Shown: positions 36,745 to 40,186, counted from the first letter of the stretch. The stretch: 64,000 nucleotides of DNA from Burkholderiales bacterium (GCA_947452135.1 CANGBT010000002.1:3586-67585), one strand, 5' to 3'. The notes: generated from the letters alone by a model not told the origin. Made by a program: numbers and translations.

Positions 36745-38778
36745 GTGCTCGAGGATTGGGTGTTGGCAGCGAGGCACGGCCTCGAGAGCGCGCGTGGCCT
36801 GAGTGTGGCCACGGGTGCGTCCGGCGCACCGGATGGGTCCGGCGGCGTGCTGCGCGGCGTGATCCAGCCTTGGGGCATCCGCGTTTGCGCGCACCGTGCA
36901 CACGGCGACGAACGTCCACGGTGGCGCGCCGTGTCGGGCAGCCTGTTCACTGCCTACGAATCGGGTGACTCTGGCGCGTCACGCGTGCATCACGGCCTTG
37001 TCGAGCGGCTGCTGCACGTCGAGCACATCGTCGAGACCGACGGGCAACAGCCCACCCCAGCGCCCGGCGGTTGCACCGCAGTTCGCTTCGACGCGGTGGC
37101 CTGGCTGTCGTCCGGTGCGGGTTCATCGTGGGTGAGCGAAGGCGCCTTGCCTGCCGAAGGACGTGCAGCCATCGCCTGCAACGGCATGTCCGGGCTGCTG
37201 GTGATCGACCGACCGGGCCGGATCGACGGCGACTGGGTCGCTGCCGTGCAGCGCCAACCCGTGCTTGGTCATGTCGCCGCACTGATCGACGTGGGCGGCA
37301 CCGGCTTGTGGCTGCGCGCCACCCATTTGCGGGCCACTCACCTGAGCGGCCCCGACGGGCTGGGGCATCTGGTGCTGGAACTGGCCGGCAGCCCGGTGCT
37401 GCCAGCGGCTGGGCGCTGGATCGTCACGCGCCGGGCCGCCCACCAGCGCGCCGCGCATGCGCTGCCGCCCGGCCAGCCGATGCCGGTGATACAGCCGCGC
37501 GGCGATACCGCCTGGCATGTGGCCGATGCGGCCGATCTGTTCCACGTGCTGCGGCCGACGACATCCGGGCCGCCGCGCACCGAATACGGCTTGCTGCACG
37601 ACACCACAACGCAGCGGCTGCACTTTGCACAGCCCCGCATCGAGCGCATCGCCGTCACCAGCAGCGGTGAATGCGGCCGGCTGCGGCTGCCGCCGGGGCA
37701 GCGCGTGCAGTTCGCCGACTGGTGCGCGCTGTTGAACTCGGACACCGAATTTCCGCCACCCGAAGCCACCCTCAGTTGGATGCTGACCGATGCCGAGATG
37801 CCCACGTTCGGCATTGATGGCTGGCATTTCCATGTGCGCCGGCTCTGGCCCGACGCCCGCAGCGCCACCCTGGTCGACACCGGTGCGGTGCAGTTGCAAC
37901 TGCACCGAGGCGACGCCGTGCAGTCCGACGCCGCAGGGCTGGACATCGCCTTCAACGACACGCGATGGTCAGTCTCGCAGGGGCCGCTTGCCATCGATGT
38001 GCAGGCCCACGGCGAGCGGCTTTTGACCTTCGCCTTCGACGCCGAACGCGCCGATTCGGACACCGCAGCGCAACTGGTGCATCCGCGCCTGATCCCGGGC
38101 CTGGCGCTCGAGCCGCTCGGCACCTGGCTGCCGGGGCTGTGGAACCTGAGCTCGGGCGCATCTGGAGGGTCGGGGGTCCCCGCCAGCGTGCCGTTGCAGT
38201 TCGATGGCCGGCAACTGAACATCGGCTGCGCCGTGGCCATCGGCGACGTGGCCTGGGGATTCGGCCGCCTGCACAACGCCACGCTGAAGCTGGGCGGCAC
38301 GCTCACCGCCTGCCCTGGCGGTGTCGATTTCGGTCTGAGCCTGGGCAGCGAGGCCGCGCCGGCCACGCTGACCGCCGGGCCGCACACCGGCCTGGCCATG
38401 GTCGACATCGGCGTGCGCAGCGACGGGCCGCACATCGATGTGCGCGTGGCGCTGGAGCTGCCGATGGCGCTGGCCACCGATGGGCCCCACAGCGGCGGCG
38501 CGGTGCTGGCGGTCCAGCTGCGAACGCAACGGGACCGCCCGGTTCGCATCGGCGGCGTGGCGAGCGGCCAGGCCATGGTCGACGTGCTCGATGGGCTGAC
38601 GTGCCTCAGTCTGGCGGTCGAGTCGCCCTGCCGCGTGCTGCCGGGTCGCCCCACACCCGCCCACGTTCGCCTCGAAGCCGATCTGATCGCCGGCGTGCAC
38701 CTGCCGCTGTGCAGCCTGCTCGACACGGATGGGCACATCGGCTGGCCGCTGGGGATCACCATCGAGCGCGGCGCCTGA
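36745..38778 (+). CDS. hypothetical protein, 677 aa, no recognisable domain
   Basis: Long open frame with G/C-rich third positions. GTG start is preceded by GGGAGG (36734-36739, 5-nt spacer). Amino-acid composition looks balanced (W/F/H/D/E present), unlike the Arg/Ser/Pro-rich antisense frames. I see no signal peptide or TM segment. Confidence 0.6.
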   Translation: MLEDWVLAARHGLESARGLSVATGASGAPDGSGGVLRGVIQPWGIRVCAHRAHGDERPRWRAVSGSLFTAYESGDSGASRVHHGLVERLLHVEHIVETDGQQPTPAPGGCTAVRFDAVAWLSSGAGSSWVSEGALPAEGRAAIACNGMSGLLVIDRPGRIDGDWVAAVQRQPVLGHVAALIDVGGTGLWLRATHLRATHLSGPDGLGHLVLELAGSPVLPAAGRWIVTRRAAHQRAAHALPPGQPMPVIQPRGDTAWHVADAADLFHVLRPTTSGPPRTEYGLLHDTTTQRLHFAQPRIERIAVTSSGECGRLRLPPGQRVQFADWCALLNSDTEFPPPEATLSWMLTDAEMPTFGIDGWHFHVRRLWPDARSATLVDTGAVQLQLHRGDAVQSDAAGLDIAFNDTRWSVSQGPLAIDVQAHGERLLTFAFDAERADSDTAAQLVHPRLIPGLALEPLGTWLPGLWNLSSGASGGSGVPASVPLQFDGRQLNIGCAVAIGDVAWGFGRLHNATLKLGGTLTACPGGVDFGLSLGSEAAPATLTAGPHTGLAMVDIGVRSDGPHIDVRVALELPMALATDGPHSGGAVLAVQLRTQRDRPVRIGGVASGQAMVDVLDGLTCLSLAVESPCRVLPGRPTPAHVRLEADLIAGVHLPLCSLLDTDGHIGWPLGITIERGA

Positions 38779-38791
38779 GCCGGTGACGGCG

Positions 38792-40186
38792 ATGGATGGC
38801 ACCGGCTTGTCGCTCCTGCTGTTTCCGCAGCGCTGGGACGGCTGCCGGCTGAGTGCCTCGCTGCTGGTGCTGCCCCGTGGCGATCCGCTGCACGCCTCGC
38901 TGTGGGCCGAAGGCGCGGCGTTTGCCGGCGCGCCGCTCGCGTTGCGGCTCGAGTTGCAGTCGGGTGGCGATGTGTTCACGCCGGGCGCAGCGGGCAACCT
39001 GTCGGTCGACTTCACGCTGCCGGGCGCGCCACGCGCCGTCGAGCTGTTCAACGCGCTGCACGCGCAGTTCCTGCCCACACCACCGCCATCGAACCCGCAG
39101 GCGCTGTCGCGCTGGCGCGAGCAGCGACGCGCCCGCTGGGCTGCGCTGGCAGCGATGCGCCAGGCGCGGCCAGACACCGACCTCGCCGTGCCGGGCCGCT
39201 CACGCGCCGGCGGCGGCACCTCCAAGCGGTCCTCGCCGGTGCTTTCCACTGCCGACTTGTCGCACCGCCTGATCCGATCAGCCAGCGACCCTAAGACTGC
39301 CTCCGAGCACCAGTTGTCATGGGGCGAGGTGCTGTCGCACGCGATGCGGCAGCCGGCGCTGTCGCGCGCACTCGGGCTGGTGATCGACATCGACACCGAC
39401 TTCACCGGCTGGGATGTGGCCGGGCGGTTGTCGCAAGGCGGTTGGTTGCAGGTGACGCCGGCCGCACCGCGGCCCCATCCCGCGCCGGGCCACGCCGTGC
39501 GCATCCCTCCGCTGGGTTCGGCTGCACGACCGCTGTTTGCCGCGGTGCTGTTTCGCGCGGACGCCGCCGGTGCGCCGCCCCGCCCTCACCCGTGGCGCAC
39601 CGAGGCCGAGGCCTACAGCGACGGCTTCGCGCGCGCGGTGCACTCGCGCGAGTTCCGGCCGCTCGGCGCCAGCCTGCCGCAGCCCCCACCGCCGGGCGTC
39701 CACCCGGGCCTCGCGATCGGCTGGGACGACGAGCAGGTGCTCGTGTGGGTTCAGCGCCAGATCGATGCGCTGTGCTCGCCCGATGCGTGCCCGGGTCTGA
39801 GCGGCGTGGCCGGCTACCGCGTGGACGTGCGCGAGGCCGGCAGCGGCCACACCGGCTGGCGCTCGCTGTGCGGCGTGCGTGGCACGGTGTCGGTGGGCGA
39901 CTGGCACAGCGAATTCATCGGCGAGTCGCGCATCGACGTGGCGCCGCTGCTCGCCGGTCACGGCGATGAGGCCTTTGCGTACCTGCCGGATCACTTTGCG
40001 GTGTGGCGTGGCGGCTCGCTGGTGGCGGGGCGGCTGAGTGCGTGGAGCGCCCAGCCGTGGCCGCCCGGGCAGCCGCTGCCCGAACTGCGCCCCGGCAGCG
40101 ATTGGGAATTGCGCGTTCGTCTGGTCGATCTGAGCGGCGGCGGACCGCAAGTCACCGACCAGCCCGTGGCGCACACCGCGCCTTGA
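38792..40186 (+). CDS. hypothetical protein, about 464 aa, no recognisable domain
   Basis: ORF 38729..40186, start trimmed to ATG 38792 (MDGTGLSLLLFPQRWDG...), 13 nt after the upstream stop. Same codon-position GC signature. No signal peptide or TM segment seen. Confidence 0.55.
   Translation: MDGTGLSLLLFPQRWDGCRLSASLLVLPRGDPLHASLWAEGAAFAGAPLALRLELQSGGDVFTPGAAGNLSVDFTLPGAPRAVELFNALHAQFLPTPPPSNPQALSRWREQRRARWAALAAMRQARPDTDLAVPGRSRAGGGTSKRSSPVLSTADLSHRLIRSASDPKTASEHQLSWGEVLSHAMRQPALSRALGLVIDIDTDFTGWDVAGRLSQGGWLQVTPAAPRPHPAPGHAVRIPPLGSAARPLFAAVLFRADAAGAPPRPHPWRTEAEAYSDGFARAVHSREFRPLGASLPQPPPPGVHPGLAIGWDDEQVLVWVQRQIDALCSPDACPGLSGVAGYRVDVREAGSGHTGWRSLCGVRGTVSVGDWHSEFIGESRIDVAPLLAGHGDEAFAYLPDHFAVWRGGSLVAGRLSAWSAQPWPPGQPLPELRPGSDWELRVRLVDLSGGGPQVTDQPVAHTAP

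Follow-up and report, generated by a model that had tools for sequence, protein, structure and literature searches.

This analysis concerns two adjacent genes, A' and B' (open reading frames (ORFs) A and B), at positions 36745-40186 of a 64,000-nucleotide stretch of DNA from a Burkholderiales bacterium (GCA_947452135.1 CANGBT010000002.1:3586-67585), which is referred to throughout as the window. The pair lies between suhB and the first gene of an exopolysaccharide (EPS) locus of the XrtA/PEP-CTERM type, which encodes an EPS export protein. An initial inspection, here termed the sequence-only reading, described the two ORFs as orphans and entertained three origins for them, namely an accessory component of the exosortase system, an unrelated novel system, or remnants of larger genes. 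The homology reported here bears out the last of these, as A and B align to one end each of proteins of 1,350-1,800 and 1,150-1,400 amino acids (aa), respectively. A' and B' are thus trimmed descendants, held under weakened selection, of a giant gene pair that is designated big-A/big-B below. The features of the module and its immediate flanks are as follows:

35614-36639, plus strand: suhB, the upstream flank (Inositol_P in the syntenic loci)
36734-36739, plus strand: Shine-Dalgarno sequence GGGAGG, 5 nt ahead of the GTG start of A'
36745-38778, plus strand: gene A' (ORF A), GTG start, 677 aa
37315-37344, plus strand: RATHL-RATHL block repeat in A' (aa 191-200), within a conserved region
38779-38791, plus strand: A'/B' junction, a 13-nt gap
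38792-40186, plus strand: gene B' (ORF B), ATG at 38792, 464 aa
40260-40919, plus strand: XrtA/PEP-CTERM EPS export protein gene (TIGR03027 225 bits, cut-off 180; Poly_export and SLBB)

Coding character of the module

The two co-directional ORFs, the 13-nt gap between them and the GGGAGG motif 5 nt before the first start were all found where they had been described. The GC contents of the first, second and third codon positions are 0.75/0.55/0.84 in A and 0.75/0.59/0.86 in B. In a sliding analysis, the third-position value (GC3) reaches 0.81-0.92 in the frame of A (37150-38600) and 0.82-0.92 in the frame of B (38650-40000), and the high-GC3 frame passes from the one to the other at about 38650-38800. 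Given this frame-specific distribution of GC by codon position, together with the switch of frame, A and B are coding frames and not ORFs of the kind that often arise by chance at 72% GC.

The 5' end of the module has features of its own. The first ~35 codons of A show weak periodicity and are unconserved, but the position of the start codon is kept in relatives (GTG/GTG/GTG/TTG). Residues 1-34 of A' form a lineage-specific leader. The GGGAGG of A' sits in a conserved 5' leader in which GAGCGGGAGG comes after a GCAGC..GCTGC inverted repeat. ORF B is open from an ATG at 38729 (485 aa), but its homologues start at the equivalent of 38792 (MD...), hence the 464 aa given here. The ribosome-binding site, the start position and the 13-nt junction are conserved among the close relatives that carry a similarly trimmed pair, referred to here as the window clade.

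Neither A' nor B' contains a signal peptide, a hydrophobic segment or a PEP-CTERM tail, and neither has a transmembrane-like segment (maximum Kyte-Doolittle hydropathy over 19 residues, KD19, of 1.28 and 1.16); their C-termini read ...GITIERGA and ...PVAHTAP, respectively. The hydropathy and the lack of Pfam and NCBIfam matches agree with what had been noticed at first inspection. The RATHLRATHL duplication is also present, 3 nt away from the coordinates originally given for it. It is old rather than recent, because its two 15-nt units agree at only 11/15 bases and distant relatives carry a degenerate form of the motif.

A widespread family of giant protein pairs

The description of the pair as orphan did not survive profile and HMMER searches, which recovered hundreds of homologues. 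The first search returned only close relatives of similar length. They fell into 9 clusters in the case of A (51-97% identity) and about 16 in that of B, and every one shares the synteny spoU-suhB-A-B-export. Three distant matches to B lay in unrelated contexts, and the A profile matched the ORF just upstream of each. A search with the B profile gathered 353 proteins, nearly all of 1,150-1,310 aa, to whose N-termini ~98% of B aligns, while an exhaustive HMMER search with the A profile gave 238 clusters, the full-length ones of 1,350-1,700 aa and matching at their C-terminal ~640 residues. By BLASTP, residues 35-675 of A align to residues 853-1524 of the 1,524-aa big-A of locus L013 (36% identity, E 7e-116), and residues 2-456 of B to residues 4-473 of the adjoining 1,367-aa big-B (42% identity, E 4e-89). 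In terms of the family hidden Markov models, A' covers positions 923-1532/1,545 and B' positions 3-463/1,174, and the best E-values are 1e-164 for A' to the big-A C-terminus and 1e-158 for B' to the big-B N-terminus.

In a scan of one genome per species, relatives of the family were found in 489 genomes from >10 phyla. These include Acidobacteriota, Actinomycetota (Streptomyces, Nonomuraea, Mycobacterium), alpha-, beta-, gamma- and delta-proteobacteria, Myxococcota, Bacteroidota, Ignavibacteriales, Verrucomicrobiota, Planctomycetota, Chloroflexota and Eremiobacterota. Big-A (1,400-1,870 aa) lies directly upstream of big-B (1,180-1,450 aa) in ~75/80 loci, the non-adjacent exceptions being contig ends or assembly frameshifts. 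The two genes overlap or are separated by gaps of 6-13 nt (12, 13 and 6 nt in L011, L013 and L014), and by this comparison the 13-nt A'/B' junction is inherited from the parent operon, with translational coupling across it likely. A and B themselves are not paralogues of one another (hhalign probability 0.1).

No family in Pfam or NCBIfam matches A or B at E <= 1, whereas a search of the same kind gives the neighbouring export gene 225 bits against TIGR03027. Extending the query set to the window proteins and six full-length giants, and the libraries to PHROGs and PADLOC, likewise gave no match (YukD at E 0.1 is noise). PADLOC-DB 2.0 returned 0 families for 8 proteins, the window pair and full-length giants, at E <= 1, and profile searches of the PDB sequences with the A and B family alignments yielded nothing significant. 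A literature search by accession and locus keywords found nothing relevant on the giant pair, and public records annotate big-A and big-B only as 'hypothetical protein'. The parent pair is therefore an undescribed family, neither giant being recognized by any library, and for this family the suggestion of an unrelated novel system holds. Examples of the unnamed pair include WP_253579742.1 (Bradyrhizobium japonicum), WP_207483545.1 (Arenibaculum pallidiluteum), WP_219518845.1 (Nonomuraea ceibae) and WP_406551946.1 (Streptomyces sp. YS-3).

The window pair resembles the giant pair in homology, gene order, strand, tight junction and the N-terminal motifs of B. It differs in having lost ~890 residues from the N-terminus of big-A and ~750-900 from the C-terminus of big-B, and in combining a fixed chromosomal context with relaxed constraint, whereas the giants occupy variable contexts. 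All-against-all clustering of 2,741 flanking ORFs found no conserved third gene, as the best cluster occurs at 8/80 loci and the best neighbour clusters are generic SDR, ABC, histidine-kinase and AMP-binding families. Similarly, a bulk Pfam scan of the 139 nearest neighbours gave no family with > 4 members, and ~5% of nearest neighbours match PADLOC defence models, a weak signal. Some giant pairs are 71-81% identical across phyla (L047/L056, L045/L086, L029/L077, L038/L065), for example between Solibacteraceae and Udaeobacter or between an Actinomycetota metagenome-assembled genome (MAG) and Acidisoma. Such identity indicates that the giant pair has moved horizontally between phyla in recent times, provided that MAG binning is right, since many of the loci used are MAG-derived and mis-binned contigs would give the same pattern.

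A number of individual contexts are recorded here as observations in their own right. At L013 (689-5066) and L018, which has the same gene set, the nearest full-length pair is divergent from a DUF3348/DUF802/OmpA/DUF2894 cluster; PADLOC identifies the DUF3348 protein as ZorG, and the cluster resembles Zorya type III. In Bradyrhizobium japonicum (L011, GCA_054823685.1, 1-23592), the pair sits in an apparent mobile or defence island, with HTH_17 and a D5_N primase upstream, and Metallophos, a CHAT protease, AAA_16 and two large hypothetical proteins downstream. Mycobacterium sp. OTB74 carries two copies of the giant pair on different contigs (L035, L046). Among the nearest neighbours (n=139) are two T4 gp19-type tail-tube proteins and two phage integrases, which are too few to establish linkage.

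Structural features of the giants

Big-A possesses a Gly/Ala/Ser-rich hydrophobic C-terminal region in 39/40 full-length members (maximum KD19 >= 1.7). For big-B, a confident AlphaFold model of the full-length protein P0032 built on a deep alignment reached a predicted local distance difference test score (pLDDT) of 80.6 and a predicted template-modelling score (pTM) of 0.74. Foldseek searches with this model returned only tandem FN3/Ig-like arrays, with E 7e-5 (PDB) and 1.6e-4 (BFVD), at TM-scores of 0.15 or less on the query and 5-10% identity. These arrays, which include LAR/PTPRD FN3 (6tpw, 6x3a), the FnIII domains of the insulin/IGF1 receptor, the SiiE adhesin (2yn5) and the phage tip-attachment protein J, would be alike with big-B in fold. 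Big-B differs from them in its lack of a signal peptide, its low TM-scores and the absence of a Pfam fn3 match, a model that matched neither the window proteins nor the full-length giants. Judged from the model, the likeness would be a generic fold resemblance and not family membership. The sequence-only reading, which had seen no repeat or known architecture, needs revision in view of the FN3/Ig-like sandwich arrays predicted for full-length big-B. Most of the predicted array falls in the part that is lost from the window copy, although the GYRVDVRE and EFRVRLVDLSGGGP segments kept in B' would correspond to FN3 C and F strands, a reading weakly echoed by an FN3con match at E 0.18.

Anatomy of the truncations

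Within big-A, the counterpart of A' residues ~35-675 is the last ~640 aa (alignment columns ~894-1557). All trimmed A proteins examined (window, L033, L002, L017) start at big-A column ~894, in the middle of the most conserved block, and lack 'VP..R..LSGYGAS..S.W' and 'GRT..E'. The near-invariant 'VRTIT..R...GWV.R.DSGW' is destroyed in them by a common 8-residue deletion together with substitutions. The common breakpoint and the common deletion point to one ancestral event behind the truncation of A. The existence of two further A'-type proteins, P0132 and P0133, shows that the A'-type lineage is deep. Three matches of ~700 aa (P0191, P0179, P0169) were considered as natural short forms and rejected, as they keep the full-length motifs and look like gene fragments.

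B', in turn, represents the N-terminal ~455-475 aa of big-B, with ~98% of its length aligned. It keeps all of the N-terminal motifs, namely FPQRWDG, SWGEV..LRQP, GGWL, YxDGFA..VH, GWDDEQ, GYRVDVRE and RVRLVDLSGGGP. The protein does end abruptly, as had been noticed, since it stops ~10 residues past RVRLVDLSGGGP (LSGGGP) and ahead of the next conserved strand, '..RF.R..PPK'. The proposal to ask whether homologues elsewhere are longer was thereby answered with the giants, relative to which the truncations are clean and the ORFs intact. That A' and B' might be frameshifted fragments was rejected, because the ORFs are intact and colinear in all lineages recovered. No fragments of the missing halves of big-A or big-B occur elsewhere in the 64-kb window.

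An intermediate state is found at L017, a locus from another Burkholderiales MAG, in which a trimmed A is followed by a B of ~1,335 aa. Next come the counterparts of the window's export gene (66% identity) and of the EPS-locus gene after it. From N- to C-terminus, L017 B retains 91/94 conserved positions in the part kept by the window, and 31/40, 26/55 and 1/28 thereafter. L017 is an intermediate whose B is decaying from the C-terminus. As it combines a trimmed A with a long, C-terminally decaying B, the N-terminal half of big-A would have been lost first, followed by decay of the big-B C-terminus, which was then deleted in the window clade. An extra small ORF-like stretch lies between the B stop and the export gene of L017 (14190-14700, plus strand).

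Selection on the trimmed pair

The ratio of nonsynonymous to synonymous divergence (dN/dS) of A'/B' against the window is 0.31/0.30 for a 97% relative, 0.38/0.38 for a 73% relative and 0.60/0.45 for a 51% relative, values that should be read with the caution that codon bias in DNA of high GC may lower dS. Bootstrap 95% intervals span 0.29-0.72 and exclude 1 in all six comparisons. The same comparisons give 0.08-0.34 for suhB, spoU and the export gene, and the homologous regions of full-length pairs at similar divergence give mostly 0.06-0.25, with one high-GC actinobacterial full-length pair at 0.37-0.61. Within the trimmed clade dS reaches ~0.7, yet codon-position periodicity is strong. Every indel that separates the trimmed proteins of 10 or more lineages preserves the reading frame, and each lineage recovered has both ORFs intact and colinear (P0001-P0025, L001-L007, L015, L016, L033, L097, L098).

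The retained portions have nonetheless diverged from the family. B' keeps 73/96 near-invariant positions (80-96 in full-length proteins), and over the trimmed pair 24-42% of family-invariant residues are lost. The A' C-terminus is polar, its maximum KD19 of 1.28 standing against >= 1.7 in 39/40 full-length proteins. Composition has drifted as well, with residues of AT-rich codons depleted; the combined fraction of Phe, Tyr, Met, Ile, Asn and Lys (FYMINK) is 0.07-0.08 in A' and B', as compared with 0.11-0.16 in full-length homologues and 0.185 for the host median. Because dN/dS lies below 1 yet above that of the neighbours, and because invariant residues are lost, we read purifying selection on A' and B' as relaxed but real, and stronger on B' than on A'.

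CRP/FNR-like boxes on both sides of the module

Both edges of the module carry a palindrome followed by a candidate -10 hexamer:

36667-36680, plus strand: CRP/FNR-like palindrome TTGACCACGCTCAA between suhB and A', centred 71.5 nt ahead of the A' start codon
36703-36708, plus strand: candidate -10 hexamer GACATT, its first base 22 nt past the box; spacing and xAxxxT conserved in the clade
40183-40196, plus strand: second CRP/FNR-like box TTGATTGAACTCAA, overlapping the B' stop (40184-40186), its centre 70.5 nt before the export ATG
40219-40224, plus strand: candidate -10 hexamer GACGAT, invariant in the clade and at the same offset from its box as on the A' side

Sites of the form TTGAYNNNNCTCAA occur twice in 64 kb (expected 0.13), and the two flank the module. 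The A'-side box is conserved in L015, L001, L033, L002, L006, L097 and L098; the export-side box has an invariant core across the clade, is the best match to the FNR consensus in the window (9/10), and is absent upstream of 60 more distant export genes. The hexamer before A' is GACATT, GACAGT or CAGAGT across the clade, while GACGAT before the export gene is invariant, and the arrangement of box and hexamer, exactly 21 nt apart, is the same in eight genomes on both sides of the module. Although 18 sites in the window match >= 8/10 FNR consensus positions, only three are intergenic, one in each of three successive spacers where the EPS locus begins. A simple scan of 36400-40500 found no sigma-70-like or terminator-like site; the lack of the former is what a promoter without a -35 element would give.

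In class-II CRP/FNR promoters, the FNR box TTGAT-N4-ATCAA is centred at -41.5. The spacing of box and hexamer on either side of the module would place the box centre near -41.5, in class-II geometry. The candidate promoters share with this class the TTGA-N6-TCAA palindrome, at 8-9/10 consensus positions, and a -10-like hexamer with conserved A2 and T6. They are unlike it in that the second half-site begins with C rather than A and that the window holds no cognate regulator. In L017, a box is likewise present on both sides of the module. The one upstream of the trimmed A lies between this gene and a divergently oriented gene (6057-7064, minus strand), whose product is a Crp-family regulator (cNMP_binding, HTH_Crp_2 and Crp domains). 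Together, the boxes and the L017 regulator suggest co-regulation of the pair with the EPS export gene.

TTGA-N6-TCAA boxes are located at 36667-36680, 40183-40196, 41187-41200 and 62940-62953, the last at the 5' edge of a priming-glycosyltransferase gene and of a divergent gene at 63035. Together, these four boxes may define a regulon of the XrtA/PEP-CTERM locus.

The flanking EPS locus

The position of the pair between suhB and the export gene, on the same strand and with 73 nt to the latter, is as first reported, and the assignment of the export gene is supported by its TIGR03027 score. This gene is the first of the EPS locus and forms context to the module rather than a member of it by homology. 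The locus continues downstream with glycosyltransferases, an AsnB-like gene, a flippase and a priming transferase. XrtA/PEP-CTERM EPS loci are characterized by TIGR03027, TIGR03013/TIGR03025 glycosyltransferases and PEP-CTERM substrates; the window, too, has genes for a PEP-CTERM protein, glycosyltransferase, AsnB-like protein and flippase, and the A'/B' pair adjoins the first gene of the locus in the same orientation. A' and B' differ from the components of this system in having homology to none of them, and their co-occurrence with it is limited to one Burkholderiales lineage.

The PEP-CTERM protein is encoded at 33967-34617 on the minus strand, separated from the EPS locus by spoU and suhB. 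It is a secreted protein of 216 aa with the C-terminal sorting signal VPEPETYALMLAGLGVVGFMARRRR, and it matches TIGR02595 and NF038126 and, weakly, floc_PepA. SuhB (341 aa in total) is extended at its C-terminus by about 75 aa of low complexity, and the length of this extension is kept in relatives (333-341 aa). Downstream of the export gene, the 365-aa product of 41354-42451 (plus strand) begins with a signal-peptide-like segment, contains a run of about 50 Ala-Pro dipeptides and ends in an fn3 domain; read antisense, its Ala-Pro repeat gives spurious GA and EL-repeat ORFs. Further EPS-locus proteins without a Pfam or NCBIfam match are encoded at 42494-43825 (plus strand), 53400-54824 (minus strand) and 56182-58893 (minus strand), and among these unmatched proteins one of 443 aa has a signal-peptide-like N-terminus.

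Origin and likely role of the pair

The explanation favoured here, to which a probability of about 0.6 is assigned, is that A' and B', remnants of a truncated giant pair under weakened selection, likely form a complex and have a CRP/FNR-type promoter of their own. The source would be a horizontally acquired operon of big-A (~1,500-1,800 aa) and big-B (~1,200-1,400 aa), a pair that is common among soil bacteria. In a Burkholderiales ancestor, this operon would have come to lie upstream of the export gene of the XrtA/PEP-CTERM EPS locus. The N-terminal ~890 residues of big-A would have been deleted first, with loss of the VRTIT..R...GWV.R.DSGW motif, after which big-B would have decayed from its C-terminus, the state kept in L017. 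In the window clade, big-B after residue ~464 would then have been deleted, such that the B' stop landed on the export promoter box. The remainder would still be translated and held by weakened purifying selection. As the retained C-terminal region of A and N-terminal region of B flank the tightly coupled junction, they very probably still form a soluble cytoplasmic A'·B' complex, without the hydrophobic Gly/Ala/Ser-rich C-terminus of big-A and without the predicted FN3/Ig-like array of big-B. Such a residual soluble complex is the likeliest role for the pair. The pair would have its own activator-dependent class-II CRP/FNR promoter, a mirror of that of the export gene, and would probably be expressed together with the head of the EPS locus.

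Several observations weigh against this account. Constraint on the trimmed pair is clearly relaxed, A' keeping 42/72 positions conserved at >= 85% (53-70 in full-length proteins), a loss of 42%, and the big-A signature motif is among what is gone. Long ORFs persist more easily at 72% GC, and both truncations cut inside conserved elements rather than linkers, as in accidental deletions. The AlphaFold model of A', built on a 10-sequence alignment, is unusable (pLDDT 34.6). With respect to the promoters, the class-II reading is drawn from motif geometry, the 64-kb window contains no homologue of the L017 Crp-family regulator, and the two boxes could instead be an insertion scar rather than a duplicated promoter. 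A metagenome scan with the export protein found no relative in which suhB directly adjoins the export gene, as at an empty site.

The best-surviving alternative, though an unlikely one, is that the two genes are functionless relics, open only through the rarity of stops at 72% GC and the presence of EPS promoter and leader DNA, with any translation as noise. The ends cut inside conserved blocks, the lost signature motif and invariant residues, and the drift to GC-rich codons would all fit such relics, as would dN/dS values 2-4 times those of neighbours and full-length homologues. Antisense ORFs of 474-511 aa illustrate how readily long ORFs arise here, and the B' stop codon falls within the export promoter box. 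However, the bootstrap excludes a dN/dS of 1 in all six comparisons (upper bound <= 0.72), codon periodicity is strong although clade dS reaches ~0.7, and the indels are in frame, with the ORFs intact and colinear in every lineage. B' moreover keeps every signature motif, the ribosome-binding site, start and 13-nt junction are conserved, and a deeper A'-type lineage exists in P0132 and P0133.

More doubtful is a version in which a mobile two-protein system has been domesticated, its A'·B' core being recruited under the shared CRP/FNR-type promoter to the control or assembly of EPS or flocs in a Burkholderiales lineage. The parent system would on this account have comprised a membrane-active, glycine-zipper-like big-A C-terminus, together with the conserved acidic N-terminal core and FN3-like array of big-B, and the window copy would have shed the outer modules.

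An undescribed accessory component of the XrtA/PEP-CTERM system, acting in EPS export, modification or floc formation, is improbable. In L017, despite a different left flank, as in all trimmed lineages, the pair does occupy the spot directly upstream of the TIGR03027 gene and shares its strand. No terminator was found in 36400-40500, and CRP/FNR-like architecture of matching form is present ahead of A' and of the export gene, and possibly also of the gene that follows. Against this, A' and B' have no NCBIfam or Pfam match and no signal peptide, transmembrane segment or PEP-CTERM motif. Their parent family, spread over >10 phyla, has an export gene within 10 kb at 0 of ~78 full-length loci and no conserved neighbour, the association being found only in the trimmed clade and L017. 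Conversely, 60 other, more distant export-gene loci lack the module. Vertical inheritance of the insertion site explains a linkage that is limited to one lineage. The accessory role offered by the sequence-only reading is thus not supported by homology or phyletic pattern, whereas the promoter architecture common to both hints at a weaker, regulatory link of the pair to the EPS locus.

Least credible is a still-active minimal mobile conflict system (anti-phage defence or toxin) with the A C-terminus and B N-terminus as its effector-sensor core: the parent pair is self-contained and patchy, with 71-81% identity across phyla, some copies adjoin D5 primase, HTH_17, CHAT, AAA_16 or Zorya-III-like genes, and the big-A C-terminus is hydrophobic and glycine-zipper-like, but PADLOC matches no member and only ~5% of nearest neighbours match defence models, constraint is relaxed, the locus is vertically inherited in a housekeeping/EPS context, and the loss of the big-A motif and of C-terminal hydrophobicity in the window clade (maximum KD 1.28 vs >= 1.7) places this reading below the accessory one.

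Implications

With the pair read as selected remnants of a giant operon, the window copy is a reduced derivative of an undescribed family, which tempers its interest, and for annotation, position alone is no ground for a label as an exosortase component. The CRP/FNR-like boxes, for their part, provide a regulatory lead for EPS and floc biology that is independent of the function of A' and B'. More broadly, two 'orphan' ORFs have given entry to a large body of bacterial dark matter, a giant pair present in at least 489 species-level genomes. The natural deletion series, which would run from the full-length pair through an A-truncated form with decaying B to the minimal A'/B', marks the C-terminal region of big-A and the N-terminal region of big-B as the part able to persist alone, and these retained regions offer a concrete starting construct for structural and interaction work on the family.

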